IMG/VR virus record: IMGVR_UViG_3300026286_000004
Origin: a virus
Taxonomy: Duplodnaviria; Heunggongvirae; Uroviricota; Caudoviricetes
DNA length: 64,000 bases
Reading direction: 5' to 3' (one strand)
Shown here: positions 16,787 to 61,212 of the stretch, piece after piece
Layout of the letters: the number at the start of each line of letters is the position of its first letter
How positions within the stretch are numbered: the first letter of the stretch is position 1
Program-made: the position numbers and the translations under genes
Notes under the pieces: generated by a model
What the model saw: only the letters and a program-made list of their open reading frames with translations
The model's database searches: none
Told to the model about the DNA's origin: nothing

Positions 16787-16890
16787 GCCCGTGTTGATGC
16801 CGGTCAGGCCGGCTGGACACGATGTTGTCAGCATTTGCCAAGCACTGCCCTTTCTGTTAACAGATTCTGCTACCCGCACACATTCCGGGC

Positions 16891-18153
16891 GTGACGATTT
16901 CCGCGGCGAGCGTGTCCGCTCGTGAGCAAGCCCGCCAGGTCGACGGCAAGTTCGGCGCGCACCGGCACGCCGAGCAGGACGCCGACCTCGCGCCGGCCCA
17001 GGACCCTATCCCGCCGACGCCGCGGCACCTGGTGGTCTACGGCACGGACCAGCACGGTTTCGACGAGGCCATGACGTCCGATCTGTTCGCCCGGGCGTAC
17101 CGGGAGGCATCGGACGGACCCATCACCGGTCAAACCGAGAAGGCGTGGCGGAACTTCTGCTCCTGGCGCGCGAAGCACGCGCACTCCCCAGCGATCGCCG
17201 GTGGTTACCGGCGCCTGGCGGCCCAGCCGCCGGACGACCCGCGGACACTGCGAGCCGCCCTCGACATGAACCGGCGGGATGACAGAGCCTCGAAGGCCCT
17301 GAGCGCGCACGTCGCCTCGATCGCCGCCGTGCACGGCGTCGACCCGGACCGGGTGCGCTCGTACGTCCGGGCCGCCCGGATCCAGCATCAGGGCGCCGAA
17401 CCCGGGACGCTTCCGGCGCCGCCAGCCGAATGGGTGGCCGGCGTGACCGAGCGGGCCTACGACGTCCGTTCCGCCCCGCACGACCCGGCGACCCTGTACG
17501 CGCTCTACCGTGCCGAAGCGGATCCGGAGGCGTTCGGGCGGATTGCCGACCGGCCGCGCCAGTTCGCCTCCGTCGACCTCGAGACTGCCGGGCCGTTCGA
17601 CAAGTCCGGCTTCAAGCCGGAGAACGGCTGCATCATCGAGGTCGGGGTGTCGATCTGGAACGAGCGCGGCGAACGGGTCGGGGAGTTCGCGTCCCTGGTC
17701 CGGCCGGAGCCGCGGGCCGCGGGCACGTACCGGACCGGTGCCGTCGACGTGCACGGCATCCAGTGGGAGGACGTCGAGAACGCCCCGGAATGGCCGGCCG
17801 TCGCCACGCAGCTCGAGACGCACCTGCGCGGCTCGACGATGATCGCGCAGAACAGCCCGTTCGAGAGCACGTGGCTCGATCACCACATGCCGGCCGCCGG
17901 AGCGAGTTTCGACCGGTACATCCCCACCGCGGACACCTTCCGCGTGGCCCAACGGCACTTCGGGACGCTGGAGAACCACAAGCTCGAGACGATCGCCGGG
18001 CATGTCGGCGTCGAGTACGCCGACGGGCACCGGGCGTTGCATGATGCCGACGTCGCAGCTCGCACCCTGTTCGCGATGCAGGGGAGAATCGAGCAGACGT
18101 ACCAGTCCGACCCGGCCTGGGCGAACGCACCGAAGGTCGATGCCGAATGGTGA
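16891..18153 (+). CDS. two-domain protein: shared N-terminal family-X module plus a C-terminal DnaQ-like (DEDDh) 3'-5' exonuclease
   Basis: N-terminus MTISAASVSAREQARQVDGKFGAHRHAEQDADL. Exo I motif FASVDLETAG..ENGCIIEVGV and Exo III motif HRALHDADVAARTLF. GTG start preceded by CCGCACACATTCCGGGC. Confidence 0.7.
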   Translation: MTISAASVSAREQARQVDGKFGAHRHAEQDADLAPAQDPIPPTPRHLVVYGTDQHGFDEAMTSDLFARAYREASDGPITGQTEKAWRNFCSWRAKHAHSPAIAGGYRRLAAQPPDDPRTLRAALDMNRRDDRASKALSAHVASIAAVHGVDPDRVRSYVRAARIQHQGAEPGTLPAPPAEWVAGVTERAYDVRSAPHDPATLYALYRAEADPEAFGRIADRPRQFASVDLETAGPFDKSGFKPENGCIIEVGVSIWNERGERVGEFASLVRPEPRAAGTYRTGAVDVHGIQWEDVENAPEWPAVATQLETHLRGSTMIAQNSPFESTWLDHHMPAAGASFDRYIPTADTFRVAQRHFGTLENHKLETIAGHVGVEYADGHRALHDADVAARTLFAMQGRIEQTYQSDPAWANAPKVDAEW

Positions 18154-18404
18154 GCCCGGACATTCCCGTGATCGCCGCACTCATGGTGTTCGCGCTGTCC
18201 TGCCAGTTGGCGGCGCTGCGTCCGGACTACGGCGCGCCCGTCCTGAGCCTGGCGGCCCTCATCACGGGGATCGCCGGGTGGCTGTGGGTGCTGCAGCAGA
18301 CCGGGTGGCTGAACCGGGTCACGGCCGCGGCGATCATGCTCGGGGTCTGCCTCGCGTCGGCGCTGCTCGCCGCGGTCACCCGCGAATCTGCCGCATCGGT
18401 ATAG
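18147..18404 (+). CDS. small integral membrane protein
   Basis: Three predicted TM helices. ATG overlaps the upstream stop (ATGGTGA). Confidence 0.5.
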   Translation: MVSPDIPVIAALMVFALSCQLAALRPDYGAPVLSLAALITGIAGWLWVLQQTGWLNRVTAAAIMLGVCLASALLAAVTRESAASV

Positions 18405-18443
18405 GTGTCAGGGCTTTCCTCTCCACCTAAGCAGGTACCCGTC

Positions 18444-18602
18444 ATGCGCGACATCCACGAAGCGCTGAAGCATCTCGAGCAGCACCTCCCGCCCGACCTG
18501 GACCCAGGCCAGGTCGTCGACTACATCGCCGAGCACGCCGAGGAGCTGCGTCACCCGGCCTGCTGCGGCCAGCCGTTGCGGGCGCCCGAGGTCTTTCAGT
18601 GA
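18444..18602 (+). CDS. hypothetical small protein
   Basis: Product MRDIHEALKHLEQHLPPDLDPGQVVDYIAEHAEELRHPACCGQPLRAPEVFQ. Stop overlaps the next GTG start. Confidence 0.35.
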   Translation: MRDIHEALKHLEQHLPPDLDPGQVVDYIAEHAEELRHPACCGQPLRAPEVFQ

Positions 18603-18826
18603 AGTTCGCCTACCTCGCCGCGGCGGCATTGACGGTCCTGATGGCCGCCAACGTGCTGCTGTGGAAGCGGGCCGGCTCCCCGGTCGATCACGACCGCAAG
18701 CACGACCCGGTGCCGGTGACCGTCGCCGGCGCGATCGCCGCGTTCACCACGGGGATCACGTTGCTCATGCTGCTCTGGTGGGTGGTCGAGCAGGCGCTGT
18801 CGGCGTGGCGATCCCGCGGCGCGTAA
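18599..18826 (+). CDS. small membrane protein
   Basis: Two hydrophobic helices. The stop sits inside the GCGTAA of the next promoter motif. Confidence 0.45.
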   Translation: MKFAYLAAAALTVLMAANVLLWKRAGSPVDHDRKHDPVPVTVAGAIAAFTTGITLLMLLWWVVEQALSAWRSRGA

Positions 18827-18856
18827 CCACCCCTGGTCACCGGAGTCATCACGATC

Positions 18857-18961
18857 ATGGACATGGAAACGGCAGTCGAGATGGTCAAGCTGATCTTCCC
18901 CGGTTCGACCGTCATCGACGTCACCGTCGAGCCGATCCTCGCAGAGGCCGGCGATGAGTGA
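18857..18961 (+). CDS. tiny ORF (34 aa) behind a class-1 motif
   Basis: GCGTAAC-N18-TCATC-N7-ATG. Overlaps the start of the 18954 gene. Confidence 0.3.
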   Translation: MDMETAVEMVKLIFPGSTVIDVTVEPILAEAGDE

Positions 18962-19655
18962 CGGCCAGACCCGCATACTCGACCACGACGCGCAGCCATA
19001 CCTGGTTGCGGCGCTGGTGGCGACCCGGCAGGCGGACCTCCCCGGTTTCGAGGATGCCGTGCGAGAGTCCCGGACCTGGCTGCACCCCGGTCATGGTGCG
19101 CATCCGTATCTGGACCGCGCGATTCTGGCGGCGACATCCGGCTGGTGGGCGTGTGCTTACCTCGCGATCCGTGCGGCGATCGCCGTGCTGATGTTCACCG
19201 TCCCGGTGGACCTGCCGGCGTCGCCCATGGTGGCCGACTGCGAGTGCGGGGCGATGCCGCTGTCCGGTGCGCTGTTCTGCGCCGAGTGCGGGGCCGACCT
19301 CCAACTGCCGCTGACCGTCTCCCGGCTGCCGGTCGCGTCCGCCGACGACCCGGACCTGTGGACGGACCTGCCGATGACGCTGAGCAGTGTCGCCCTACAC
19401 GGCACCACGGTCGTGATCACCTATGGCTCCGACGCGGGGCTGCTGCACGATGAGCCCGTCGACGGCCTGGTCGGGCGGCTGGTGTTCGACCTTGGCCCGG
19501 ACCCGGCAGCGGCAGCAGCGATCGACCAGGCGCACGCCCGGCTGCGGGAATGGTCCGCATCCGTCACGACTGTGCGCCTCCTGGAAGGCCCTGGACGGCT
19601 TTCGCGGCTTGTCGCTCCGGACGGCGCGTCCGTGACCCTTCCGAGCGGGATGTGA
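18954..19655 (+). CDS. Zn-ribbon hypothetical protein, paralog 1 (CxCG..CxxCG)
   Basis: PASPMVADCECGAMPLSGALFCAECGADL. Shares roughly half its positions with the 20023 product over its full length. Confidence 0.6.
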   Translation: MSDGQTRILDHDAQPYLVAALVATRQADLPGFEDAVRESRTWLHPGHGAHPYLDRAILAATSGWWACAYLAIRAAIAVLMFTVPVDLPASPMVADCECGAMPLSGALFCAECGADLQLPLTVSRLPVASADDPDLWTDLPMTLSSVALHGTTVVITYGSDAGLLHDEPVDGLVGRLVFDLGPDPAAAAAIDQAHARLREWSASVTTVRLLEGPGRLSRLVAPDGASVTLPSGM

Positions 19656-20026
19656 TGGCGATGCGTCTGGCTCGGGCGGCTGCGATCGGGGCTGTCGCGC
19701 TCACTCTTGTCGGCGTGGCGAAGATCGGCGACGACGAGGTGCTCTACATCCACGTCCCTGCCGAGGTGACGCATTTCGTGGTGACGAACCCGCATTCCTC
19801 GCCGTGGGTGGTCGAGGTGGACACGGACGAAGGCCGCTTCTCCCGGTGTGACCTGTCCCGGTATGACGGGCCGGAGGACATCTTCGGCGACCAGTTCGAG
19901 CTGCCCGGTCGTGCGACGGTCCCGTGCGTGACGTGGGAGTCCGGGCAGGAGGAACCGAACCCGGTCCCGGTGTTCGTCGCGGGTGGGCGTGCCGACGCCG
20001 AGGCACCGGCATCATCGCAGGCATGA
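19655..20026 (+). CDS. secreted or membrane-anchored hypothetical protein
   Basis: Product begins MAMRLARAAAIGAVALTLVGVAKIG.. The start overlaps the upstream stop. Confidence 0.5.
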   Translation: MAMRLARAAAIGAVALTLVGVAKIGDDEVLYIHVPAEVTHFVVTNPHSSPWVVEVDTDEGRFSRCDLSRYDGPEDIFGDQFELPGRATVPCVTWESGQEEPNPVPVFVAGGRADAEAPASSQA

Positions 20027-20709: not shown

Positions 20710-20745
20710 CGCCGCGTCCGGCGCCCTGTCCGGCAAAGAGCAGAC

Positions 20746-22362: not shown

Positions 22363-22495
22363 ACTTGCATTGACCATCACCGCTGACCGGCTCACCCCGG
22401 ACCGGATCGACGACATCGGCTTGGACGGCCTGATGCGTGCCCGGACCGAGGCCGGCAGCGACGACGTGCTGATCACCTACGGCGGCCCCGCGTAA
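22355..22495 (+). CDS. small hypothetical protein (46 aa)
   Basis: Overlapping start. The stop is the TAA inside the GCGTAAT of the next promoter motif. Confidence 0.35.
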   Translation: MAELALTITADRLTPDRIDDIGLDGLMRARTEAGSDDVLITYGGPA

Positions 22496-22525
22496 TCACG
22501 CGCGGGCACCGGCGTCATCTCGGAC

Positions 22526-22663
22526 ATGAACGCCACCAAGCGCACCGAAAACCCCGTGCTCCGATTCCAGCGCCAGGGTGCCTCCGGCGTGTACAAACAC
22601 CAGGCGCCGATGACCGAGTCGGTTGCCCGGCCGGACCTGGCTCACTATCTGCAACTGATCTGA
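22526..22663 (+). CDS. small hypothetical protein (45 aa)
   Basis: Class-1 motif at 22489-22528. Confidence 0.35.
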   Translation: MNATKRTENPVLRFQRQGASGVYKHQAPMTESVARPDLAHYLQLI

Positions 22664-22678
22664 TCGGTAGGGACGACG

Positions 22679-31912: not shown

Positions 31913-32572
31913 ATGCCCCTCGTTCCCGGCCTGTCGTTCGTCGCCCTCGACTTCGAATGCGCCAACAGCAGCCACGGCTCGGTGTGCAGCGTCGGGGTGA
32001 CCCGTGTCGTCGATGGTGTGGTGCACGAGCCCCGGCACTGGTTCATCCGTCCCGTGCCGCCGTTCGACTTCATCGCGCCGTACAACGCGCACCTGACCGG
32101 CATCACCGTCGCCGACCTCGCGGACGCCCCTGGGTTCGACTACTTCGGACCGCACCTGGTCCGCAACATCGGTGCGGGGATCGTCGTCGGCCACTGCGTG
32201 CGGTCCGCTGACCTGTCGATGTTCGAGCAGGCGTGGCATGCGAACCGGCTCGGCACCTCGCCGACGTTCCGCGCCCTGTGCACGCACGAGCTGGCGCGGG
32301 CGGTCCGTCCCGGACTGTCGTCGTACCGGCTCAACGACCTGGTCCGCTCCGTCCTCGGCGAGGACATGAAGGACCACCATAACGCCGGCGCGGACGCGCA
32401 TGCGACGGCCCGGCTCGCCGTTGCCCTGCTCGCTCAGAATCCGGCCCTGTTGGAGCGGTACTCCCGGCTGCGTCCCGGCCGTCCGCACCGGGAACCGAAG
32501 CCGCCGAAGCATCCGGGCATGGGAAACCCGCTCCCGCCGCGTAATGACCTCGTGCTACCGCACTCATGTTGA
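31913..32572 (+). CDS. DnaQ-like (DEDDh) 3'-5' exonuclease
   Basis: Exo I motif FVALDFECAN and Exo III motif HNAGADAHATARL. Class-2 GGCAAAGAG 5 nt before the ATG. Confidence 0.7.
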   Translation: MPLVPGLSFVALDFECANSSHGSVCSVGVTRVVDGVVHEPRHWFIRPVPPFDFIAPYNAHLTGITVADLADAPGFDYFGPHLVRNIGAGIVVGHCVRSADLSMFEQAWHANRLGTSPTFRALCTHELARAVRPGLSSYRLNDLVRSVLGEDMKDHHNAGADAHATARLAVALLAQNPALLERYSRLRPGRPHREPKPPKHPGMGNPLPPRNDLVLPHSC

Positions 32573-32574
32573 GC

Positions 32575-33372
32575 ATGACGACGATTCCGACCGTTTACGT
32601 GCCAGGCACCACGCCGCCGCGCGTCACGCCCGGCTGCGAGTGGGTGGTCGCCGGCGAGGGACGGGCGACGAAGAAGTATCGCGGCGTCCGGTTCCGTTTC
32701 GACGGCACCGCCTGGTTAGCGCGCCGCCTCGCGTGGGAGTTCCTGGACAACGCCTGGCAGCTGATCGAGATCGGCCCGGCGCTGGACCGGGATGATCTGT
32801 GGGAGCCGGCCGAGAACAGCAAGGCGTTCTTCTTCTTCGCATCCGCCCGCAACTTGCAGCGCGAGTGGACTCCCGGCCAGTACGACCTGATCGGGCCGCT
32901 CATCGAGCGCAACCTCGACCACGCGGAGGAGTACCTGCTCGCCGGGTCCGGGAACGCGGAGGAGTTCCTTCCCGCCCGGGGCCGGGACCCGCTGGACGCA
33001 ATGATCCTTGCCGCGCGCTACGGCTACGCGGGGCTGGTGTGGCGGCACCCGGACGGCCGGGAGGCACAGATGTTCGCGTCCGATGTCCCGCAGCCCACCC
33101 GGATCACCAGCGAGGCCGTACGTGCCGCCGCCTTCCACGACGTCACCGGCCGTGACGACCGGATTATCGCCGAGAAGCGGACCGGACGCACGTGGGCGGC
33201 GGAGCTTCCCGTCGTCCTGCCGTGCGAGTTGCACAACCCGTGCCGGCCGCTCGACGTGGACGAAGCCTTCGCCGTCGCAGAGGTTCTCGGCGAGCAGATC
33301 CCGCACCTGTCCGCGTGCAAAGCCAGGGCCCTGCTCAAACGCTGGGCGATCAACCACTTACAGAAAGGCTGA
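32575..33372 (+). CDS. hypothetical protein (begins MTTIPTVYV)
   Basis: Variant class-1 motif CCGCACTCATGTTGAGCATGACGACG. The ORF is open from 32566. Confidence 0.5.
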   Translation: MTTIPTVYVPGTTPPRVTPGCEWVVAGEGRATKKYRGVRFRFDGTAWLARRLAWEFLDNAWQLIEIGPALDRDDLWEPAENSKAFFFFASARNLQREWTPGQYDLIGPLIERNLDHAEEYLLAGSGNAEEFLPARGRDPLDAMILAARYGYAGLVWRHPDGREAQMFASDVPQPTRITSEAVRAAAFHDVTGRDDRIIAEKRTGRTWAAELPVVLPCELHNPCRPLDVDEAFAVAEVLGEQIPHLSACKARALLKRWAINHLQKG

Positions 33373-35106: not shown

Positions 35107-35145
35107 GCGTAACGACCGTCGCTGACCGGCGTCATCTGCGGCATG
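35107..35145 (+). promoter_or_regulatory. class-1 start-associated motif (representative): GCGTAACGACCGTCGCTGACCGGCGTCATCTGCGGCATG
   Basis: GCGTAAC-N18-TCATC-N7-ATG. One of about 25-30 copies. Confidence 0.6.
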
Positions 35146-35832
35146 AAGACCGATCACGTCTCCCGGCTGCTGACCGCGCCGCGCCTGTTCACCGCCGTTG
35201 TCGGTTCTCGCGCGTACGGTCTGGCGAACACGGGTAGCGATACGGACAAGTTCGGTGTCGCCCTACTGCCTGCGACCGTCTTCCTCGGCCTGAACCCGCC
35301 GGCGAAGGAAGCACTGACGTACCACTCGACAGGGACCGCCGACGACATCACGGTCCACGAGGCCGGTAAGTACCTGTCGCTGGCGCTGCGCGGCAACCCG
35401 TCCGTCCTCGAGACGTTCTGGCTGACCGACTACCTCGATGTCTCGCCGCTTGGTCGGTCCCTGCTGGAGCTACGCGACGCGGTCCTTTCCCGGCGCGAGG
35501 TCGCGTCCTCCTACCTCGGGTACTGCTCCGCGCAAGCCCACGGGATCGCCGTGAAGCAGGCCACGAAGCACGAGAAGTTCGGCCGGCACCTGTACCGGCT
35601 CGCCGAGCAGGCGACCGGCCTGTGGACCACCGGTCGGATCGACCCGGTCGTCGCCGACCCGGAGGCATGCCGGGCGTTCGGACGGTCCTGCGCGAACGGT
35701 GAGACCGCTCCGGCCGAGGCCCTGATCGCCCGGTTGAAGGACACGTTCGAGCAGCCGACACCGCTGCCGGTGCGCGCCGAACAGGACCGGATCAACGACT
35801 GGCTGGTCGCCACCCGCAAAGCGACCCTCTGA
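35143..35832 (+). CDS. Pol-beta-superfamily nucleotidyltransferase-fold protein
   Basis: GSRAYGLANTGSDTDKFGV matches the GS..DxD NTase motif, followed by a helical C-terminal domain. Class-1 motif at 35107-35145. Confidence 0.55.
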   Translation: MKTDHVSRLLTAPRLFTAVVGSRAYGLANTGSDTDKFGVALLPATVFLGLNPPAKEALTYHSTGTADDITVHEAGKYLSLALRGNPSVLETFWLTDYLDVSPLGRSLLELRDAVLSRREVASSYLGYCSAQAHGIAVKQATKHEKFGRHLYRLAEQATGLWTTGRIDPVVADPEACRAFGRSCANGETAPAEALIARLKDTFEQPTPLPVRAEQDRINDWLVATRKATL

Positions 35833-41692: not shown

Positions 41693-42357
41693 TTAGCCGG
41701 ACCGACCTGAGCGCAGTCGTGAGCGGCTCTTTGCATCCGCGCAGATTCGCGGCAGCTCGACTTGATCCTCCGACCGGTCGACGATCAGGTACCGGAGGGC
41801 GGCGGGCAGCTGCTGCAGGACCGGCACCACCATGTCGACGGCGCGCTGTCCGCTGTTACGCACTCCGAGCATGACGTTCGGGAGCGGCCAGGCGACATAT
41901 TCGGTGGCCGGCAGGTTGACGTCCGGGTGGAGCGACATCATCAGGTTCCGGCCGTTGTGGTAGGTGTTGCGAACCATATGTTCGAGCGTCAGGCCGCCGG
42001 CGTCGGGAACCTCGCCGGTGTTCAGGCGGAGCAGGCCGTCGGGGTCGGCGACCACCACCCGGAATGTCAGGGTCGGGTGCAGGCCCATCTCGGCGAACGA
42101 GGCCGCGACGGCGCTGGCTTGCCCGGATCCGTTAACGACGGCCGGAATGGCCGGCGGTAGGTGGCTTCGATCTGGTTCACGGCGGCGTCTTTCGGTGTTG
42201 GTCCGGTTGCTTTCTCTTTGCCACCGGACGCCGGCGCAGTCAGGTCGACGTCCTGCTCGGGATGCGGCTTGGTGGCGAACTTCCCGCCCGATCCGCGTGG
42301 GTGGTCGGCTTCGGTGAATTGCGTCGTCGTGCCCTGGATGTGTGCGGGGACATGCAC
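41693..42357 (-). pseudogene. decayed family-X gene: the N-terminal module is intact but the canonical ATG reads ACG, and it is followed by a frame break into the 41693..42088 ORF
   Basis: The reverse strand reads CCGCACACATCCAGGGCACGACGACGCAATTC, compared with CCGCACACATCCAGTGCATGACGACG at 44260. It encodes TTQFTEADHPRGSGGKFATKPHPEQDVDLT. Protein-like reading switches frame near 42140-42160. Confidence 0.4.
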
Positions 42358-42437
42358 ACAGTGCAGGTAGCGCGTCTGGGACGTCAGCCAATCCGGCCGC
42401 CGCGTACCGATCCTCTCGTCCCGGCCTCATCATCGGC

Positions 42438-42983
42438 ATGGACAACACCTTGCTGATGTGGACCGACGTCGAAACGAGCGGCCTGGACGCCGAGCGTGAC
42501 CACTTGCTCGAAATCGCCGCCGTCATCACCGACCCGACCGGCCGATACGAGATGGGCTGCTTCGAGCGCACGATCGCCTACAGCCCGGACGAAGCGTCCG
42601 CGATCCGCGCGAACAGCGGCCCCGTCGTGCAGAACATGCACGACCAGACCGGCTTGTGGGGCCGGCTGCCGGGAGGCACGCCGCTGGCCGAGGTCGACGC
42701 GCAGCTGCTCGACTTCATGGGCCAGTTTTCCGGCCGCCCCCGCCAGCTTCGGGTCGCCGGCAACTCCGTCCGGCTCGACCTCAACTTCCTCGAGCGGCGC
42801 CTGCCCGGTACGTACGGGATGCTGCACTACCGTTCCGTCGACGTCACCGCGCTGGCGTACGTGATGTTCGCCAACGGTTTCGTCACCGAGGGGTTCCCGA
42901 AGGAGAAGCAACACTCGGCGATGTCCGACATCCGCGAGTCGATCGCCGAATACCGGTGGATCATGGAGCGATTGCGGGGCTGA
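42438..42983 (+). CDS. orn: oligoribonuclease (DEDDh 3'-5' exoribonuclease)
   Basis: LLMWTDVETSGLD, HLLEIAAVITD and a DxxxH C-terminal motif. Class-1 motif at 42402-42440. Confidence 0.75.
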   Translation: MDNTLLMWTDVETSGLDAERDHLLEIAAVITDPTGRYEMGCFERTIAYSPDEASAIRANSGPVVQNMHDQTGLWGRLPGGTPLAEVDAQLLDFMGQFSGRPRQLRVAGNSVRLDLNFLERRLPGTYGMLHYRSVDVTALAYVMFANGFVTEGFPKEKQHSAMSDIRESIAEYRWIMERLRG

Positions 42984-43020: not shown

Positions 43021-43827
43021 GTGGACCCCTCCATGAAGCGTCTCGACCCGGTGCCCGGCCTGCCGCCGGTCGGCACCGCGGTCTCGCTTGCTCTCGGGGT
43101 GCTCAAGCATGCGAAAGTGCGCCGCTGGTCCGACCTGCCGCACTTTCCGGAGGACCTCGCACTGACGACCGGCCAGCCGGAGCTGCTGACCCGGTTCGCC
43201 CCGGCAATCACCCACGTCGCTGCCGCCGCCGACGGACGCCCGCTCGTCACCGTTGTCGTGTGCACCGCCTGCCGCCGCTGGCTGTTGTTCGCGCGCGGCA
43301 CCGCACCGAAGTCGTGCCCGATGTCGCTGGACTGTCCGGGCGAGCTGATCAAGGTGGCCCCGGCCCAGCTCGTTCCGCTGGTGCCGCGAATCTCCGGGCG
43401 GATCGAGCGCCCCGACGGGACGGTCGAGTTCCGTCTCGATGACGTGCTGCACAACCCGGACGGACCGGCCGTGATATTGCCGGACGGGGAGACCCAGTTC
43501 TGGGTGAAGGGCAAGCTGCACAACGCCGACGGTCCGGCGATCTCCCGCCCGGACGGCACGTTCGAGCACTGGGTTCGCGGACGCCGGCACAACCCGGACG
43601 GTCCCGCGGCGAAGTACCCGGACGGGACGGTCGAGTTTTGGGTGAACGGGAAGCTGCGCAGCAAGGACGGGCCGGGTCGTATCCGCCCGGACGGGACCCG
43701 CGAGTTCTTCGACACGCAGGGCCGCTGGCACCGCGCCGGCGCTCCCGCTGTTGAACGACCAGACGGGACCGGCGAATGGTTCGCCCATGGCAGACAGAAA
43801 TCCACTCCATTGAAGGGAACATCATGA
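43021..43827 (+). CDS. MORN-variant repeat protein (~8 repeats of RPDGTxEFWVxGKLHNxDGPA) with an N-terminal Cys cluster
   Basis: Tandem repeats of 11-12 aa. Class-2 element GGCAAAGAA before the GTG start. Confidence 0.55.
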   Translation: MDPSMKRLDPVPGLPPVGTAVSLALGVLKHAKVRRWSDLPHFPEDLALTTGQPELLTRFAPAITHVAAAADGRPLVTVVVCTACRRWLLFARGTAPKSCPMSLDCPGELIKVAPAQLVPLVPRISGRIERPDGTVEFRLDDVLHNPDGPAVILPDGETQFWVKGKLHNADGPAISRPDGTFEHWVRGRRHNPDGPAAKYPDGTVEFWVNGKLRSKDGPGRIRPDGTREFFDTQGRWHRAGAPAVERPDGTGEWFAHGRQKSTPLKGTS

Positions 43828-44228: not shown

Positions 44229-44259
44229 CCGGTCTGTTCGCCCCGCACACATCCAGTGC

Positions 44260-45489
44260 ATGACGACGATCTCGACGCATGCGGAGTCGGCCCGCGAGTC
44301 CGCCCGGCAGAGCAACGGCCAGTTCGGAACGCAAGCTCACGGTGAGCAGGACGTTGACCTCTCCGAGCTGATGTCGACGCCGGATGTGCGCGAATACCTG
44401 GTCTCGCTCGGGCATGACGCGCACGTCGTTGACGGGATGCTGGAGGGGATCGACGAGGACGCCGTGTTCACGCCGCAGGCTGTTCAGGATCTGGCGGCCG
44501 GGTCGGAGGCGATGCAGCCGACCGGGAACGACGTGCGGATGACAACCGTCTTCTCGAACGTCGACATCAAGGAGCGGGCCGCACGGATCGAGCAGGAGCT
44601 GCTCGCCTCCGTCGAGCAGATCGTCGCCGAGGGGAAGCTGCGGGACTTCCTTGACCTGTGTGCCGCGAACCGGATGTCGAGCTGGTCGTTCGGTAACCAG
44701 ATGCTCGCCCACCTGCAGGGTGCGGAGCGCCGGGCCAACGCAACCGAGGAAGAGCTGGAGGGCTGCCCGCCGGACCTGATGCTCATGTCGGCGGCGGCGT
44801 GGAAGCGGACGTACAAGCGGCACCCGCGCGCCGGCGCGAAGGCGATCTGGATCCTGCGCCCGAACAAGATCACGATCACCGAGAAGGACCCTGGCACCGG
44901 TGAAGAGAAGAAGCGGTCCTTCATCAAGGGCTGGTCGGGGCAGGCCGAGTTCGACGCGTGCCAGACGACCGGCGGGCCGATCCCGCAGCAGGAGCTGGTC
45001 TCGTTCAGTTCGGCGGCTCCGCCGGAGGGCGCATACGAGGCGCTCAAGGATGCCGTCGGCAAGGCGGGCTACCAGTACGAGGAGAAGGAGATCCCGCGCT
45101 ACCGTCCGGGTGACCCGACGTCGAACGTGGGCTACACCGATCCGAAGACGAAGACCGTTGTCGTCGACTCGCGGCTGCCGGAGGCGCAGAAGGTCTCGAC
45201 TCTCGCGCACGAGCTGGGCCACATCCACTGCGGCCACGTCGACGAAATGGACGACTACCACACCCGCTCCGGGCGGTCTCGCGCAGAAACCGAGGCCGAG
45301 GCGACGGCGTACATGACGATGCGGCACTGGGGGATGCCCCCGTCCGAGGCGTCCAGTTTCTCGCCGGGCTACATCGCGTCCTGGTCGCGCGGGGACCCCG
45401 AGACGATCAGCAAGGCAATGGCGAAGGCGACGAAGGCGTTCCAGGCGATCACCGGGCTCCGCCCGCAGGCTCAGGAATCGTCGTCCTGA
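44260..45489 (+). CDS. family-X N-terminal module plus an ArdC-N-like ssDNA-binding domain and an HExxH Zn-metallopeptidase (ArdC-like anti-restriction or polyvalent-type protein)
   Basis: N-terminus MTTISTHAESARESARQSNGQFGTQAHGEQDVDL. Middle block SWSFGNQMLAHLQG..MSAAAWKRTYKRHPRAGAKAIWILRP. Metallopeptidase motif STLAHELGHIHCGH. Confidence 0.65.
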   Translation: MTTISTHAESARESARQSNGQFGTQAHGEQDVDLSELMSTPDVREYLVSLGHDAHVVDGMLEGIDEDAVFTPQAVQDLAAGSEAMQPTGNDVRMTTVFSNVDIKERAARIEQELLASVEQIVAEGKLRDFLDLCAANRMSSWSFGNQMLAHLQGAERRANATEEELEGCPPDLMLMSAAAWKRTYKRHPRAGAKAIWILRPNKITITEKDPGTGEEKKRSFIKGWSGQAEFDACQTTGGPIPQQELVSFSSAAPPEGAYEALKDAVGKAGYQYEEKEIPRYRPGDPTSNVGYTDPKTKTVVVDSRLPEAQKVSTLAHELGHIHCGHVDEMDDYHTRSGRSRAETEAEATAYMTMRHWGMPPSEASSFSPGYIASWSRGDPETISKAMAKATKAFQAITGLRPQAQESSS

Positions 45490-45679: not shown

Positions 45680-48600
45680 TCAGAAGCTCCATTCGTCCGC
45701 AGTTTTTGCCGGCACCGGCACCGGGTCCGGGACGTCGCCGAAGTTCCAGTCGTCGGCGTTGGCCGGCTTCGGTGCGGGCCGCTCGACCGGTTCGGAAACG
45801 AAGTCCCAGCCCTCGTCGTCTGCGTCGGCGAGGTCGACGTCGTTGACCACGTCCTTGACCACCTGCTCGACCGGATCTTCGCCGAAGTCCCAGCCGTCGT
45901 CGGCCGGTTCCGATTTGTTGTCCGGCCGCGCGTCCGGGGCGTCGATGGACCACAGGTCGTCGTCGTCGTCGGTCTCTGTCTCGACTGGCTCCGACGCGCC
46001 GAAGACATCCCACGCATCGTCCGTTTCCGGCTCGCTGACCGGGCTGGCGGGCTCGCTGGCAGCCTCCTGCTCCAGACCGGGCTGATCGGTCACGGGCTGC
46101 CCGTCCAGTGCTTCTGCGGCCTCGGAAGCCTCGTCGGCAAAGTCGTCCAGGTCCAGCTCTATCTCTACGGCGTTCTCCAGATCGCCAAGGTCCAGCTCGA
46201 TCTCGTCTTCCAGGTCCCATGCCTCGTCCAGGTCGATGTCCTCGACGGCCGGGCCGCGGTCCTTGCGGACCTGGATGAACGGGGACAGGTCTACGGGCAC
46301 GACCGGTTCGCGCTCCTGCGCGATCTTCGCACCCATCACGGCAGTATCGGTGAAGGCGACCTGCACCGTGTGCGGCATACCGGTCGACGGTTCGTAGATG
46401 CCACGGCCCGGCGGGATCGCGCCCGGGAAGATCGGGGCTTCTTCGGCACGCCGCAGCGCCGACATCCGGTCGCCGGAGGTGGTCGCGCCGACGAGCAGCC
46501 GGGCCAGGTTCGTCTTCAGGCTGCCGAGGCCGCCGATCTTCGCCAGGTCGTCCTGGCGCAACTTCTGGCCGCCGAGCACCAGCGAGACACCCGCGGACCG
46601 GGCCTCCCGGGTGATCTTCCCGGCCAGCGACCCGATCGTGTCCTTGAAGCTGTTCTCCAGCAGCAGCAGTTGCCGCTCTTCCTCGAGGTCCGGGTCGTCC
46701 ATCGGGGTCTTCGGCACGGATGACTTCTCGATCAACGACGTGAACTCGTCGATGAACACGACCAGCCTGCGCGGACGAACCTCATCCGGCAGCTTGTCGA
46801 TGGACTCGGTCCCGTGCTGCTTGTTCAGATCCTTGCGGCGCAGTACCTCCTGGTAGGCCCACCGCATCGCCGCTGCACCGTTCTGCCACGTGTCGGCCGT
46901 CGCGAGAGCGAACGACGTCGCGTACTTGAAGTCGGCGGCCCCCTTGACCGGGTCGACGACGATCGCGTCATGCCCGGCCAGCAGCACGCCGGTCAGCAGG
47001 TTCGTCATCGCGACCGACTTACCTGACCCGGACCCACCGATCACGCCCAGGTGCGGCGACTCCTTCATGTTCCAGTTGTCCGGGACTCCGGCCACGTTCA
47101 CGGCCAGCGGGATCGACAGCGACCCGTCCGGGATGCCGTCCATGATCAGTTCGACGCGCGAGGGCATCGGGTCCCGCTCGGAGACCTGCAGCACCAGCCG
47201 GGCGGCCGTGGTCCGCTCCCGGTCAAGCTCGATGAAGTCGTTCCCGGTCGAGGTCCGCAACGTCGGCAGGATCTTCACGATCCCCGGAATCGACGCACCC
47301 TGCGGCAGGTCGAACGTCAACACGGTCACCTGCGGGTTCGTCTCGACCGGCTCCACCTTCGCCAGCACCGGGGTGAGCGCGCCCGGGATGTCGAGTTTCG
47401 ACTTCAGCCACGCCTGGTCCCAGTCGAGGGCCACAACCTTGTCGCGGTCCTTGACGGAGACGATCTCGACGGACGACGGTCTCGCGCCGGCGTAGATGAT
47501 GCACCCGTCCGCGGCAGCATCCACGCGCAGCCACGGCGTCGCCAGTGCCTGCCGCATCCGGTCCGCCGCGCCGCGCACGTCCGCGAGGGTCACCCCGCCA
47601 TACAGCCGCAGCGTGATCTCCCAGACGGACGGCTCGGCGAACCGCCTGTTCCCGGACGGCTCCGGGGTCAGCGCGCGAACCGCGACGACCTCGGGGCGCG
47701 CGAGACGAGCCGCATCGAAGGCATGGTTGACGTGCGAGGCGAGCAACCACTGGTACGCCGGCGTCGGCCGGGATGCGGACACGACCTTCTCCGGTGCCGT
47801 CGGCAGGCCCGGTTCGGAGGACCACGTGACGCAGAACGCGGTTGCGTGGCGGGTCGCCTTCCGGCCCACGCTCGGCGGGGTCCACCCGGTCACAGACACG
47901 AACGGGGCCGCGTTCAACGTGGACGCCAGTTTCGTCTCCGCCTTCGGGTTGCCGTGCTCCATCGGGTCCATGCCCTTGCGTACCTGGAAGACGGTGTGCT
48001 TGATCCGCTTCCCCTGGTAGGTGTCCTCGCTCGAGACCCGGGGCGCGATCGTAGGCGGGTTCACCCCCTGCTTGAGCACCTCCGTCCAGACGCCGTTCCA
48101 CCAGTCCTCTTCGAAGATCTCGCCCAGCGCGTCCGGGAATTTCGGGTCGATCGTCTTCAGATCGTCCGTCGCGGCGCCGAGGAACAGGTGCCCGCCGTCG
48201 GGTGACCGGTGGTCGATCGCAGCGTCCAGTCGCGTCCCGCCGCCGAGCATCGGAGCGAACCCGAGGGCGCGTGCCGTGGTCCAGCCCGGGCCTTCCGGCC
48301 ACGCCCCGTTCACCTGCCACATCGCGACCGGTGAGTCGTCGGTGTGCATCGCCGTGACCGCGGTGACCATGACGGGCGCGACCTTGAGCGCGTCGCAGAC
48401 CTGCTGAACCCAGGTGCGGACTGCGGTGTCCAGGACCTCCGGGGATGTTGCCGGATCGCCGATGTCGGGGATGTCGCCGGACGGGGAGATGACGATCGCG
48501 AACTTGCGTGGGTGGATCGTCCCGGTGACCTCGACCCCGTCCACGTCGTTCGGTCTCGGGATGAGTGTCATGTCCACGCCGGCGCCGACGGTCGGCGCGA

Positions 48601-50131
48601 TCTTCGGCGCCTTCAACCGCATCGTCTCGGACGACTCGGCACCGAGCGTCTCGAACTCGTAGACCGTCCACGTCCCGACGGACCGGACCTCGTACAGGTC
48701 CGGCGCCGGGTCGACCTTCAGGATCTCCCACCGGGCGCGCCACTGGTCTTCGGCGGCGAGCATCAGCACGATCGGGCGGACGCTCTCGTCCTTCAACGGC
48801 ATGTCGTCATCGACCGCACCGACGAACATCGACCCGCCGTCGCGGCGGTGGTCGACCACGGCCGGCATACCGGAGACCGCCATGAACCGGTCGCCGAACT
48901 TGTTCGACCCGCCGTCGGTGACCCGCTTGGCGACCTTTCCCGACCGGGCCGCCTCCCATCCGGGGCCGTCCGGCCAGTCCGCGGTGACTCGCCACAGCGC
49001 CTTCGTCGCACCGTCGGCGTGCATGCCTTCGACGCCGGTGACGACGGCCGGGGGCAGGCCGAGCGCGATGCATGTGCGCCGCATCAGGACGTCGATGACG
49101 ACCTGGACGATGTCCGCCGGGGTGCCCGGGTCGGTCAGATCCGGGGCGTTCCCGGACGGCGCGGTCACGATGGCGAACTTCTGCGGGTGGATCGTGCCGG
49201 GCAGCGGTTGCCCGCCGGCCTCGTTCGGTCGGGTCAGGACGGTCACCTCGACGCCGCCGCCGACGGTGGTCGCGACCTTGTCGGCCTTGTCGCGGACCTC
49301 CGCCGCGCCACCGACGCTGGTTGCGATGAAGTCGTCGATCTGCCAGTCGCCGACCATGACCGAGTCGATCAGCTGTGGCAACGGATCGAACTTCAGCGAC
49401 TCCCACCGCGGGCGCCACTCCCGCCGGGCCCGGACGACCGCGCGCCACCGGGCCAGCGCCTTGTTCGACCAGGCCGGGTACAGCCCGGCGAGGAAGCCGA
49501 GGAACGCAAGCCCGGAGACGATGACCATCGGCGGGCCGAACTCGAGGCCGGGGACGGCCTCTTCGATCTTCGGCGGCCCGTACTTCCCGGCCGCAGCGCC
49601 CGCCCCGGCGCCGGCCAGGCCGGACAGCAGTGCCAGCGGGCGGAACGGGAAGGTGTTCAGTCGCAGGCCGGGGGATCCGGACTTGCGGCGCATCGCGGCC
49701 GTCATCACGGCGACCACGATGAACATTGCTGGCGGGTTCGCCAGCGCGTACACCGGCTCCTTCACCGGCAACGCGATCGAGGTCCACGCAGCCGCGACCG
49801 CAGCGAACCACGACGCGCGCGGCGGCCACCCGGGCAGCCAGTCGAGCGTCGGGACGAGCAGGCGCCACCGCAGGCTGCGCCACATCTGGTACGACGCCTG
49901 CAGGTCTTCCTCCTTCTCGCCCGCGGGTTGCGCGCCGCGGCCCGGGACCTTCCGCCCGGTCATCAGCGGCGGCTTCTCCAGGATTGCCGAGATCACGAGC
50001 GCAGCGAGCAGGACCGGGACGCCCGGGTAGCCCTTCCACGCGGCCACGCCGATACCGATGATGCCGACGAAGAACGCGAACGGCGCCAGCGACGCCGACC
50101 CGGCCTGCTGCTGGCTGCGAGTGGCAGGCAT
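45680..50131 (-). CDS. FtsK/SpoIIIE-family DNA translocase-like giant membrane protein (TraB/TcpA-like), with a duplicated internal domain and an acidic Trp-rich C-terminal tail
   Basis: N-terminal TM helices. Two repeats of about 250 aa carry the TIHP(Q/R)KFAI(V/I)..PSG..PD motif. Walker A GSGKSVAMTNLL and Walker B LVVFIDEF. The tail holds six (D/E)(D/E)xW(D/N)F motifs and ends DEWSF. Start ATG 50131 overlaps the upstream TAA. Confidence 0.75.
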   Translation of the reverse strand: MPATRSQQQAGSASLAPFAFFVGIIGIGVAAWKGYPGVPVLLAALVISAILEKPPLMTGRKVPGRGAQPAGEKEEDLQASYQMWRSLRWRLLVPTLDWLPGWPPRASWFAAVAAAWTSIALPVKEPVYALANPPAMFIVVAVMTAAMRRKSGSPGLRLNTFPFRPLALLSGLAGAGAGAAAGKYGPPKIEEAVPGLEFGPPMVIVSGLAFLGFLAGLYPAWSNKALARWRAVVRARREWRPRWESLKFDPLPQLIDSVMVGDWQIDDFIATSVGGAAEVRDKADKVATTVGGGVEVTVLTRPNEAGGQPLPGTIHPQKFAIVTAPSGNAPDLTDPGTPADIVQVVIDVLMRRTCIALGLPPAVVTGVEGMHADGATKALWRVTADWPDGPGWEAARSGKVAKRVTDGGSNKFGDRFMAVSGMPAVVDHRRDGGSMFVGAVDDDMPLKDESVRPIVLMLAAEDQWRARWEILKVDPAPDLYEVRSVGTWTVYEFETLGAESSETMRLKAPKIAPTVGAGVDMTLIPRPNDVDGVEVTGTIHPRKFAIVISPSGDIPDIGDPATSPEVLDTAVRTWVQQVCDALKVAPVMVTAVTAMHTDDSPVAMWQVNGAWPEGPGWTTARALGFAPMLGGGTRLDAAIDHRSPDGGHLFLGAATDDLKTIDPKFPDALGEIFEEDWWNGVWTEVLKQGVNPPTIAPRVSSEDTYQGKRIKHTVFQVRKGMDPMEHGNPKAETKLASTLNAAPFVSVTGWTPPSVGRKATRHATAFCVTWSSEPGLPTAPEKVVSASRPTPAYQWLLASHVNHAFDAARLARPEVVAVRALTPEPSGNRRFAEPSVWEITLRLYGGVTLADVRGAADRMRQALATPWLRVDAAADGCIIYAGARPSSVEIVSVKDRDKVVALDWDQAWLKSKLDIPGALTPVLAKVEPVETNPQVTVLTFDLPQGASIPGIVKILPTLRTSTGNDFIELDRERTTAARLVLQVSERDPMPSRVELIMDGIPDGSLSIPLAVNVAGVPDNWNMKESPHLGVIGGSGSGKSVAMTNLLTGVLLAGHDAIVVDPVKGAADFKYATSFALATADTWQNGAAAMRWAYQEVLRRKDLNKQHGTESIDKLPDEVRPRRLVVFIDEFTSLIEKSSVPKTPMDDPDLEEERQLLLLENSFKDTIGSLAGKITREARSAGVSLVLGGQKLRQDDLAKIGGLGSLKTNLARLLVGATTSGDRMSALRRAEEAPIFPGAIPPGRGIYEPSTGMPHTVQVAFTDTAVMGAKIAQEREPVVPVDLSPFIQVRKDRGPAVEDIDLDEAWDLEDEIELDLGDLENAVEIELDLDDFADEASEAAEALDGQPVTDQPGLEQEAASEPASPVSEPETDDAWDVFGASEPVETETDDDDDLWSIDAPDARPDNKSEPADDGWDFGEDPVEQVVKDVVNDVDLADADDEGWDFVSEPVERPAPKPANADDWNFGDVPDPVPVPAKTADEWSF

Positions 50132-50703
50132 TACGCCACCAGTGACCGGATGCGTTGCACGATGCGCGGGTCGGCCTGCTTCGTGACAGGGACTGCCCGC
50201 CGCACGACACGCTCGAGCGCTGCGCCGTGGACCAGCCTCGCGGACGGGAACGTCGCCGCCCACAGCGACACCTTCCCCTCCCGCCGGGACGGCCACACGA
50301 CGACGACCGGGACGGTCAGGTGCACGTCATACATGGACAGGTACGCCGTGAACGCCTCCTGCGCCATCTGCACGGACTTCTTGTCGCACGCCGCGAACGG
50401 CTGGAAACCGCGGCGGGTCTTCCCGCCGAACGTCCACAGGAAACCCGGCTTCCACGACTTGCTGTCGATGAGCATGACGCGGTTGCTGGCGATGACCACG
50501 TGGTCGATGTTGATCGACATGCCGGGGATCGGGACACTCACGTCATGCATGACCGTGATCTCGGTACTGCCGGCCATCTGGTTGAGTACGTACGCGGTCG
50601 CCGCCTCGCCGCGGGTGCCGGCGCTGACCGTGCCCGCGTTCGTGGCCCACCTGGTGTCACCGGAGAGCGAGGTCGCGGCCCGTCCGATGATCTGCCCGCT
50701 CAC
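50131..50703 (-). CDS. NERD-like (nuclease-related domain) protein
   Basis: NIDHVVIASNRVMLIDSKSWKPG matches the NERD core. GTG start. Confidence 0.5.
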   Translation of the reverse strand: MSGQIIGRAATSLSGDTRWATNAGTVSAGTRGEAATAYVLNQMAGSTEITVMHDVSVPIPGMSINIDHVVIASNRVMLIDSKSWKPGFLWTFGGKTRRGFQPFAACDKKSVQMAQEAFTAYLSMYDVHLTVPVVVVWPSRREGKVSLWAATFPSARLVHGAALERVVRRAVPVTKQADPRIVQRIRSLVA

Positions 50704-55041: not shown

Positions 55042-55072
55042 GAGGCCGGTCCGCCGGCGTCGGCACGCGGCG

Positions 55073-56028: not shown

Positions 56029-56038
56029 TACCGTTCTC

Positions 56039-60520: not shown

Positions 60521-60573
60521 ATTTGCTCTTTGCCGCTGCACGTCGTTCCGGCGGCACCGCACACATACTGGGC

Positions 60574-61212
60574 ATGACGACCCCGTTCAACGAGAGCGAT
60601 CATCCGCGCGGAGCAGGTGGGCAGTTCGCGCCGAAGGCTCGCTCGGAGCAGGCCCGGCTGGACGCTCCATACGGCGACGGGCACCCGTGGAACCAGGATG
60701 CGGAGCAACGGGAACGGTTGGAGGTCGAGCTGGCTGGGCAGATCGCCGCGTTCCCGCATTTCGTGGCCGACCCGCGAGCGTGCGCCGCGCGCATCTTCCA
60801 GATCGTCGCCGTGTACCGCGGTGTCCCATCCGAGGTCGCCGAAGCCGCGACACCGGATGCCGTGGCGGCAGCCAGCCGCGGCGGGCCGTCCGGCGAGGGG
60901 ATGTACCGGGCGATGCTTCCGGTGATCGACGCCGCCCAGGCCCGCGAGTACGCCCCGAAACCGCAGCCGGACCGGATCCCCGACGTCCCGACGCTGAGAG
61001 AAGTCGAAGCCGCGAAGGCGTACCTGGATGCGCTGGAGCCGGTCCGGCAGATGTACCGGCCCGACTGGGAGCGGAGGAACGGCGGGTACGGGCCGACCGT
61101 CGCGCAAGTTCGCACACATGCCCATGAACGCTCCTTACAGGATGACCGGATCCGTGCCGCGAAAGTCGAGTACGACCGGCTGAAGGCGGCCTACGACGCC
61201 GCGAACGGCTAG
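60574..61212 (+). CDS. family-X N-terminal module protein (213 aa)
   Basis: N-terminus MTTPFNESDHPRGAGGQFAPKARSEQARLD. Promoter variant CCGCACACATACTGGGCATGACGACC. Confidence 0.55.
   Translation: MTTPFNESDHPRGAGGQFAPKARSEQARLDAPYGDGHPWNQDAEQRERLEVELAGQIAAFPHFVADPRACAARIFQIVAVYRGVPSEVAEAATPDAVAAASRGGPSGEGMYRAMLPVIDAAQAREYAPKPQPDRIPDVPTLREVEAAKAYLDALEPVRQMYRPDWERRNGGYGPTVAQVRTHAHERSLQDDRIRAAKVEYDRLKAAYDAANG

Follow-up and report, generated by a model that had tools for sequence, protein, structure and literature searches.

A short N-terminal tag behind its own promoter box on unrelated proteins of a putative actinobacterial megaplasmid

Conserved N-terminal markers on otherwise polymorphic delivered proteins are a known idea, represented by the capsid-targeting sequence (CTS) of bacteriophage T4, by MIX motifs and by LXG domains. 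Here we describe a ~35-residue N-terminal segment, called the tag in the following, that is common to three intact genes and one decayed gene in a stretch of 64,000 nucleotides from the IMG/VR virus record IMGVR_UViG_3300026286_000004 (the window is this whole stretch; its G+C content is 68%). The copies start at positions 16891 (+), 44260 (+), 60574 (+) and 42330 (-), and the genes are named below by these starts. Judged from sequence, the best explanation is that in Actinomycetota the tag has been grafted onto many accessory proteins with no relation to one another, encoded by megaplasmids of the conjugative type and by integrated elements.

Polyvalent proteins (Iyer, Burroughs, Anand, de Souza, Aravind 2017, PMC5512222) and MuF-type toxins (PMC5576092) share a domain vocabulary with the tagged proteins, namely an ArdC-N-like domain with a zincin metallopeptidase (MPTase) domain, and LPD1. 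Like the tagged proteins, they are encoded by invasive DNA elements. The core of the tag is homologous to the motif F.E.xHPRx3GKF, which in phage proteins precedes ADP-ribosyltransferase (ART), GNAT, RelA/SpoT, NUDIX, PBECR, LPD3 and TopoIB domains. Whereas polyvalent chains combine several domains, every tagged effector here is encoded by a small gene of its own, behind its own promoter and with a single tag at the N-terminus. The plasmid tag also differs from the phage motif in its additional acidic half (HxExDxDL) and in a variant core, ARQ, that lacks the His-Pro.

The T4 CTS, found on the internal proteins IPI-III and Alt, is reportedly a short N-terminal peptide on unrelated proteins that marks them for delivery together with the DNA and is cleaved off by a protease. 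The tag resembles it in being a short N-terminal peptide common to unrelated proteins, but the two have no sequence similarity, no capsid, portal or prohead protease gene was seen in the window or its relatives, and scans of phage collections did not find the tag. MIX motifs of type VI secretion system (T6SS) effectors and LXG domains of type VII secretion system (T7SS) toxins are N-terminal markers on polymorphic C-termini, often encoded in gene arrays. The tag likewise is a conserved N-terminal marker on unrelated activities, occurs in arrays and is useful for effector discovery; MIX and LXG, however, are folded domains or other motifs of the T6SS and T7SS and show no sequence relation to the tag, and the context here is DNA-transfer machinery. 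Known signals of type IV secretion system (T4SS) substrates are C-terminal Arg-rich or E-block sequences, the TSA/TSB signals of relaxases and BID domains; they are often basic and come from Gram-negative bacteria. In contrast, the tag is N-terminal, has an acidic second half (E.D.DL) and is found in Actinomycetota. Its proposed role would have in common with these signals the passage of proteins together with DNA, which in the T4SS concerns primases, relaxases, VirE2 and the ArdC protein of pSa.

Single-stranded DNA (ssDNA) promoters are known for leading-region genes of conjugative plasmids; unlike such folded promoters, the box upstream of the tagged genes is short, resembles a -10 element and keeps a constant distance of 7 nucleotides from the start codon (putatively leaderless). 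Leading-region or establishment genes (e.g. PMC6294495) resemble the tagged genes in forming an anti-defence set that includes ardC-like genes and in having a promoter distinct from that of the backbone. ArdC of pSa is among the proteins that pass with DNA, as cited in PMC5512222, and ArdC of R388/pSa (PDB 6I89; PMC7213743) shares with the 44260 protein the two-domain architecture, the HExxH motif and the carriage by a plasmid, while the tag and the following 60-100 residues are additions in 44260.

Tag copies, their promoter box and the tag family

Six-frame regular expression and profile hidden Markov model (HMM) scans of the window identified exactly four copies of the tag (Table 1). A first-pass annotation of this DNA, made without database searches, had counted four intact proteins; three are intact, and the 42330 copy has decayed. 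The DNA pattern CCGCACACAT-N7-RTGACGA, in which the RTGACGA portion represents the codons Met/Val-Thr-Thr/Ile, matches exactly at 16874, 44243 and 60557, all on the plus strand, and with one mismatch at 42347 (-) and 32558 (+). If up to three mismatches are allowed, the window has seven sites against 0.60 expected, a number reached in none of 100 shuffles. The proposal that the box precedes each tagged gene was correct.

The C-terminal parts of the window proteins are mutually dissimilar. The 16891 protein, which starts with GTG and begins TISAASVSAREQARQVDGKFGAHRHAEQDADL, is a fusion to a DnaQ-like exonuclease, as predicted. The 44260 protein, which begins MTTISTHAESARESARQSNGQFGTQAHGEQDVDL, had been described as a fusion to an ArdC-N-like domain and an HExxH peptidase, which the searches support: Pfam detects Peptidase_M78 (8e-10, residues 288-353) with the HExxH motif present, a PHROG family 'anti-restriction protein' matches with 5.6e-10, and the best Foldseek match of the structure model is R388 ArdC, 6I89 (E 2.3e-5, 233 of 274 columns aligned), while Pfam ArdC_N gave no score. 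The result points to an ArdC-like protein with an ArdC-N domain and a C-terminal HExxH metalloprotease, with the caveat that the mean predicted local distance difference test (pLDDT) score of the model is 57.8. A scan of IMG/VR with this protein gave no match. The 60574 protein carries the tag as stated but has 212 residues instead of the 213 given before; it has no family match in Pfam, PHROGs or NCBIfam, and the homologue search returned a 99%-identical copy as its sole relative. The gene looks like a moron-like insertion between recG and the WGR-PARP gene (61209-62537, -); its stop overlaps the end of the latter, convergent gene by 4 nucleotides.

The 42330 copy was rightly called a pseudogene with ACG in place of ATG: in P0003, an almost identical relative found in a different sample, the codon here is ATG, and the frame of the tag runs into a stop. 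The annotation had placed the break of the frame about 200 nucleotides after the start. The coding signal in the G+C content of third codon positions (GC3) changes frame earlier, at ~42150-42180 (~150-180 nucleotides after the start), and then runs on to the stop at 41693. The C-terminal domain of ~155 residues has a weak match to phrog_2045. A small oligoribonuclease/RNase_T-like gene (42421-42983, +) is divergent from the decayed gene and overlaps part of its upstream region; it has a class-1 promoter, GCGTACC…CCGGCCTCAT-N7-ATG, at 42438.

This class-1 promoter, from which the box of the tagged genes had been distinguished, is indeed the usual unit of the window: GCGT(A/G)(A/C)C-N12-CCGG(C/A)NTCAT-N7-ATG is present in ~17 copies, all on the coding strand. 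The GTAAC-N16-CGTC layout within the unit presumably corresponds to promoters of the extracytoplasmic function (ECF) type, and the regularity of the unit suggests an element-specific sigma factor. As the fixed 7 nucleotides to the start codon leave no room for a Shine-Dalgarno sequence, the sequence also suggests that mRNAs driven by class-1 promoters are leaderless. Tagged genes have the class-2 box CCGCACACAT instead, at all four copies in the window, and the class-1 -35 element is missing in three of the four. The consensus of this box for tagged genes, CCGC(A/G)CACA(T/G)-N7-ATG, is not a TANNNT hexamer, and here too the spacing of 7 nucleotides is fixed, with no space for a Shine-Dalgarno sequence. 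A related promoter had been noted for gene 32575-33372, which encodes an RNA-ligase-like protein. The promoter is a hybrid of the box CCGCACTCAT and the class-1 -35 element GCGTAAT, but the protein lacks the tag, and the same hybrid is found before the genes at 4510, 31075 and 54407 (-), none of which encodes the tag either.

That the promoter variant goes with the tag is also seen in other elements. The box is conserved before tagged genes in the unrelated metagenomic contigs L006, L007, L010, L012, L014 and L017, and several library matches with mis-called starts read '..AHI..M', which is the translated box. In the megaplasmid pS16 (see below), all ten genes of an array of tagged genes stand behind CCGC(A/G)CACA(T/G/C/A)-N7-ATG, while untagged neighbours use CCGCGCATAG-N7-ATG; the two box classes of pS16 differ by essentially one base. 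From plasmid to plasmid the backbone box varies and the tag-specific box is conserved. Each tagged gene is apparently an independent, leaderless unit behind its own box, and with such a dedicated box the tagged proteins make up a set with regulation of its own. The promoters thereby fall cleanly into classes within one replicon, with a backbone and a tag-specific -10-like box that are one or two bases apart. The box is not universal: it is missing at tagged genes in L002, L008, L011, L021 and L024. Genes in L002, L021 and L024, and the gene at 17936 in L018, have a Shine-Dalgarno leader and no box, yet retain the tag; the peptide is therefore independent of the box.

The first-pass annotation had suggested a search with an HMM of the four N-termini. 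A profile built from these alone, searched against 1.84 billion representative proteins at E<=1e-3, retrieved 83 proteins. In 75 of them the G-[KQRE]-[FW] core falls among the first 70 residues, and in about 69 the tag begins at residue 1. Two library matches (P0014 and P0065) have the appearance of translated repeats and were not considered tag proteins. The 69 usable C-terminal parts fall into 55 BLAST clusters, and Pfam detected domains in a handful of 63 tagged proteins scanned (M78 in three; RNase_T, DUF7226, DSBA). Partners of the tag include the DEDDh exonuclease, the ArdC-like protein, LPD1 (on the tagged plasmid protein P0022), MORN-like repeats and zinc ribbons, which confirms that the similarity is not the result of recent duplication of whole genes.

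Two types of the tag can be distinguished, type A with the consensus M(T/S)xISxxAxSAREaARQxDGKFGtQxHxExD(V/I)DL and type B with the consensus MTTxFxExDHPRGxGGKFAxKxHxExDVDL. R16 and G20 are invariant, F22 is almost invariant, and both forms of the core are followed by the acidic tail HxExD(V/I)DL. Some homologous C-termini carry type A in one protein and type B in another (P0043/P0064, P0046/P0078, P0011/P0016 and pS16_9670/10851); the two types are therefore variants of one module. In pairwise comparisons of 16 distinct DNA copies, nucleotide identity at codon positions 1, 2 and 3 was 0.59, 0.63 and 0.43, respectively, and the invariant Arg is encoded by five codons: the tag is conserved at the protein level. 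In the AlphaFold2 model of the ArdC-like protein, residues 1-35 have pLDDT values of 25-29 and no secondary structure, and they precede the folded domains. Such values are typical of a disordered short linear motif (SLiM) and not of a folded domain.

The tag does not belong to a common domain of a known family: in the four window proteins, residues 1-45 match no model of Pfam, NCBIfam or PHROGs, no Pfam family covers the N-terminal tag of the 63 other tagged proteins, and the best match of the tag profile to the PDB has an E-value of only 0.39. Homologue searches with short tag alignments returned nothing (A1) or only the already known P0059 (A7), the word index being sparse for queries of 40 residues. 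A Tat, Sec or T7SS signal was set aside after inspection of the sequences, which have no hydrophobic stretch, no twin-arginine and no WxG or YxxxD/E motif. The literature searched, including the polyvalent-protein and MuF papers (PMC5512222, PMC5576092), does not describe the motif. The tag, its bipartite structure, its dedicated promoter class and its homology to a phage junction motif that is itself undescribed all appear to be new with respect to the resources searched.

Tagged elements and the phage junction motif

Pattern scans found the tag neither in IMG/VR nor in GenBank phages, and tblastn searches of phages with the type-B tag gave insignificant matches only. Among 185,579 species genomes, a narrow tag pattern was confirmed at two loci, of which L009, in Mesorhizobium, is probably spurious; neither the regular expression nor the HMM scan showed a tag there. 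Among plasmids, the tag is limited to three megaplasmids of Curtobacterium (545-607 kb) and one of Pseudarthrobacter. Plasmid pS16 of Curtobacterium sp. MCSS17_016 has ten tagged genes within 11 kb, all of them annotated as hypothetical and without a Pfam domain. Two to four tagged genes apiece are present in the contigs L010, L012/L017, L014, L018 and L022.

The window encodes a VirB4-like AAA_10 ATPase and an FtsK/SpoIIIE-like protein of 1538 residues, together with many proteins of replication, repair and nucleotide metabolism: a class II ribonucleotide reductase with an intein, ThyA, dihydrofolate reductase, DinG-like and RecG helicases, an NAD-dependent ligase and a WGR-PARP protein. No capsid, portal or prohead-protease family was found among the window open reading frames (ORFs) scanned, which cover only 64 kb of a larger replicon. 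Searches for near-identity at the DNA level (40-62 kb) in plasmids and phages returned essentially nothing. The closest relatives of the FtsK-like protein (33-38% identity) are encoded on plasmids of 149-608 kb from Paenarthrobacter, Pseudarthrobacter, Arthrobacter, Curtobacterium and Glaciihabitans, and more distant homologues are found on megaplasmids of Bifidobacterium, including pMP7017, which is experimentally conjugative (PMC10832533). Genes for FtsK-like and MORN-like repeat proteins adjoin tagged genes in L010, in L008 and in the window, and in L002 an AAA_10 gene and a tagged gene lie within one locus of 19 kb. Because of the FtsK-like and AAA_10 genes, the kinship to megaplasmids and these gene neighbourhoods, the window is best read as part of an actinobacterial megaplasmid of the conjugative type.

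The MORN-like repeat protein (…DGPA..xPDGTxEFW…) is encoded near tagged genes in the window (43021-43827), in L008 (6346-6876 and 8500-8889) and in L010 (8193-9074 and 9254-9895), and in P0079 the tag is fused straight to MORN-like repeats. L008, a genome island of Nostocoides vanveenii (NZ_BAAAPN010000101.1) flanked by fatty-acid synthesis genes, and the metagenomic contig L010 (Ga0102832_1000452) are syntenic: the order is a DUF3145-like gene, the FtsK-like gene, MORN-like genes, one or more tagged zinc-ribbon proteins and a YdjM-like membrane hydrolase. The arrangement resembles a small integrated element that depends on FtsK and bears the tag.

About a dozen long library matches (690-1930 residues; P0014 and P0065 excluded) have two to four copies each of the motif [FW]xExxHPRx3G[KQE]F. 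These copies stand between ART, RelA/SpoT, nucleotidyltransferase and GNAT domains and are followed by Gly/Ser-rich linkers. P0020 has an S78 prohead protease domain at its start, followed by three motifs, and one of the long proteins is encoded closely downstream of a portal gene, with two short ORFs between them. In IMG/VR, 232 stretches agreed with the strict pattern [ED]HPRDxDG[KQ], and 44 loci were confirmed. Portal proteins account for 12 of 32 motif-bearing ORFs scanned; in these, the motif follows right after the portal domain and precedes an appended TopoIB, LPD3 or unknown domain. The remaining ORFs have ART (ADPrib_exo_Tox, ART-PolyVal), NUDIX, GNAT, PBECR1/3, LPD3 or lethal-factor-like peptidase domains. 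For 17 ORFs that start with the motif, the nearest upstream ORF of at least 150 residues on the same strand was taken as the neighbour: four of these matched a portal family, three MuF and one an S78 protease, and there were also matches to three terminase families.

When the plasmid tag was aligned with the phage motif F.E.EHPRD.DGKF, hhalign gave a probability of 95.9% and an E-value of 5.6e-9 over 27 columns, which supports the likeness to polyvalent proteins that the first-pass annotation had seen. By this profile comparison the core of the tag is homologous, and not only analogous, to the phage junction motif, and is the same element as that found ahead of the effector domains in virion-associated polyvalent proteins. 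It ties the tagged families to the junction motif of polyvalent and portal-fused phage proteins. The window proteins are not polyvalent themselves, even though domains and junction motif are shared: each has one functional unit, and the ArdC-like protein just its usual two domains. The plasmid proteins look like the same system as the phage polyvalent proteins, unbundled into single genes of tag and domain. In the phage-like element L020, the genes on both sides of the 1848-residue polyvalent protein P0029 (4198-5535 and 11588-13882) also encode an HPR..GKF motif, and one of their products starts MSFVEDEHPRDGDGQF; stand-alone genes of tag and domain and fused chains therefore coexist in one such element.

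Possible roles of the tag

Tentatively, and with somewhat less than even confidence, we read the tag as a leader or docking peptide for effectors that are delivered with DNA, maybe clipped afterwards. All tagged proteins would share one partner, located at the apparatus that translocates the DNA, which recognises the peptide; in the window, the FtsK/SpoIIIE-like ATPase and the VirB4-like AAA_10 ATPase are candidates. The domains joined to the peptide, with anti-restriction, nuclease and other effector activities, would be loaded and then delivered to the recipient together with the DNA, and the peptide may be clipped off after delivery; the tagged proteins would be the unbundled plasmid counterpart of phage polyvalent proteins. 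This is supported by the partners of the tag, as the ArdC-like, MPTase and LPD1 domains are domains of polyvalent proteins. It is also supported by the clustering of tagged genes, the context of conjugative elements and the homology to the phage motif. If the tag marks delivered or early effectors, its 35-residue profile would be a search handle for dozens of unknown families, which would be deployed when the megaplasmid enters a cell and would likely have anti-restriction, nuclease or host-takeover functions.

A bolder version of this reading, which we regard as doubtful, is that HPR/ARQ-x3-GKF is a universal leader for proteins that travel with DNA, in tailed phages, on portal-fused and head-packaged polyvalent effectors, as well as in actinobacterial conjugative megaplasmids, on stand-alone tagged effectors behind a dedicated early promoter: it would be recognised at the DNA-conducting ring (the portal or an FtsK-like/T4SS ATPase) and license export into the recipient. 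If true, there would be a large, mostly uncharacterised repertoire of injected anti-defence and takeover proteins, with more than 55 families here, and a portable signal for protein delivery by Gram-positive conjugation.

Several points weigh against delivery by way of the tag. The signals of conjugative T4SS substrates known to us are C-terminal or internal, never N-terminal. An effector fused to a portal is already anchored in the capsid and needs no targeting, and the motif at this position looks more like a release or processing site; in addition, one and the same peptide would have to fit receptors as dissimilar as a phage portal and a conjugative ATPase. In pS16 a long distance separates the tagged array (55-66 kb) from the gene for the FtsK-like protein (231-234 kb). 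As the phage motif lacks the acidic tail HxExDxDL, it may work differently from the plasmid tag. Finally, ArdC of R388 is reported to be required through expression in the recipient and not in the donor (PMC7213743), so that an ArdC-like protein need not travel as a protein.

Some of these observations fit better to a role in proteolysis, with HPR/ARQ..GKF being chiefly the recognition or cleavage site of a protease and delivery, if any, being specified elsewhere; we consider this possible, if rather unlikely. In phages, effector domains would be released from portal fusions and from polyvalent chains, and in plasmids the tag would be an N-terminal propeptide, the removal of which activates or matures the protein. 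The motif is placed accordingly, exactly at domain boundaries with Gly/Ser-rich linkers next to it in polyvalent proteins and at the junctions of portal with TopoIB and LPD3 domains, and P0020 opens with a prohead protease domain ahead of its three motifs. The T4 capsid-targeting sequence, too, is said to be cleaved. Metallopeptidase processing of polyvalent proteins was proposed by Iyer et al. (PMC5512222), and peptidase genes lie directly 5' of tagged genes in pS16 (S1C; L023 6772-8028) and in pPA-B-2242 (S8; L024 3774-5531). However, no one protease family was seen to recur in the phages, the window, pS16 and the remaining loci, a conserved bipartite N-terminus of 35 residues exceeds the length of a typical cleavage site, and a mere processing site would leave the separate promoter class unexplained. 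The serine peptidase genes beside tags in these two megaplasmids may be relevant to processing or may be a coincidence.

An unlikely alternative is that the tag acts without any transfer and recruits the proteins to one partner inside the cell that produces them. Candidates would be a host chaperone (for refolding), an unfoldase or degron receptor (for a short life), the incoming DNA-protein complex or a plasmid regulator, and the special promoter would serve to express the genes early (zygotically) once in the recipient. A disordered, SLiM-like tag with invariant Arg and Gly and a near-invariant Phe would suit such binding, the dedicated promoter class points to a regulon, and a universal host partner would account for the use of the element by both phages and plasmids. 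In L002 there is a DnaJ-domain gene near the tagged gene. Also in favour, R388 ArdC works if it is expressed in the recipient (PMC7213743). To our knowledge, the tag is unlike the known clamp, single-stranded DNA-binding protein (SSB) or ClpX motifs, and this counts against such a partner. In addition, the portal fusions and the head-morphogenesis neighbours in phages point to proteins that are borne by the virion and not to ordinary cytoplasmic ones.

It is highly improbable that promoter and 5' coding sequence are kept for reasons at the level of RNA or DNA, as translation control of leaderless mRNAs, as the target of a regulator or small RNA or as a recombination junction for the shuffling of cassettes, with the peptide as a by-product. 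Box and first codons are nearly identical between window copies, for example CCCCGCACACATCCAG(T/G)GCA(T/C)GACGACG, tagged genes occur in cassette-like arrays and all appear leaderless. But the codon-position statistics largely refute the idea, with the third position being the least conserved and the invariant residues being encoded by several codons, and the copies that have kept the tag with a Shine-Dalgarno sequence and without the box do not agree with it either. In addition, types A and B are strongly different as DNA but can be aligned as protein, and the homologous phage motif is internal to long ORFs. Least credible of all, a paralogous family in which whole genes were duplicated and only the N-terminus is still recognisable would find some support in the weak C-terminal likeness within the pS16 array (10238~10851~9670 and 19015~19995), but the C-termini belong to clearly different folds or families (a DEDDh exonuclease, ArdC-N with MPTase, LPD1, MORN-like repeats and zinc ribbons), and 69 of them form 55 clusters.

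Coordinates and minor features of the window

Table 1. Positions of tag copies, promoter boxes, tagged genes and further features. Positions refer to the window unless an accession is given; bit scores (37.7-68) are from the HMM of alignment A4, which includes these four sequences.
Feature	Position	Strand	Details
Class-2 promoter box CCGCACACAT	16874-16883	+	7 nt 5' of the GTG of the exonuclease gene; TGTTAAC where class-1 promoters have their -35 element
N-terminal tag, type A	16891-17001	+	(V)TISAASVSAREQARQVDGKFGAHRHAEQDADLAPA; 55.7 bits
Tagged exonuclease gene	16891-18153	+	420 aa: tag, ~170 aa of unknown region, DEDDh (RNase_T/DnaQ-like) exonuclease aa 229-391
Class-2 promoter box CCGCACACAT	44243-44252	+	7 nt 5' of ATG; without class-1 -35 element
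N-terminal tag, type A	44260-44364	+	MTTISTHAESARESARQSNGQFGTQAHGEQDVDLS; 68 bits; pLDDT 25-29, without secondary structure
Tagged ArdC-like gene	44260-45489	+	409 aa: tag, ArdC-N-like domain, HExxH (M78/IrrE-like) metallopeptidase (predicted)
Class-2 promoter box CCGCACACAT	60557-60566	+	7 nt 5' of ATG
N-terminal tag, type B	60574-60669	+	MTTPFNESDHPRGAGGQFAPKARSEQARLDAP; 37.7 bits
Tagged gene, function unknown	60574-61212	+	212 aa; antiparallel to its two neighbours, recG and the WGR-PARP gene
Class-2 promoter box CCGCACACAT of decayed copy	42338-42347	-
Decayed tag, type B	42229-42330	-	(T)TTQFTEADHPRGSGGKFATKPHPEQDVDL; ACG in place of ATG; 59.3 bits
Pseudogene body	41693-42330	-	stop in the frame of the tag at 42067-42069; GC3 signal runs on to the stop at 41693
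Hybrid box CCGCACTCAT with class-1 -35 GCGTAAT	32558-32567	+	5' of the RNA-ligase-like gene 32575-33372
Class-1 promoter units (examples)	9873-9918, 18821-18866, 22490-22535, 35107-35152, 53130-53085 (-)
VirB4-like AAA_10 ATPase	970-4491
FtsK/SpoIIIE-like protein	45680-50296		1538 aa
pS16 locus of tagged genes (L023)	NZ_CP126255.1 35287-75394

Further observations concern other genes of the window. The class II (B12-dependent) ribonucleotide reductase (5767-9033) is split by its intein at residues 376-504 (PT-HINT/Intein_splicing). An insert at residues 405-545 of the AAA_10 ATPase matches 'terminase' PHROGs and may be another intein-like insert. Within the ORF that starts at 9909, a tandem repeat of 117 bp (10058-10717; 5.6 copies, 84% matches) encodes units of 39 residues with a cysteine motif of the type GYxxxGCRCxxC. 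At the edge of the window (63901-64000), there are tandem repeats of 9, 27 and 36 bp (CTGACCGCC…) in the 5' end of a DUF2201/VWA gene on the minus strand.

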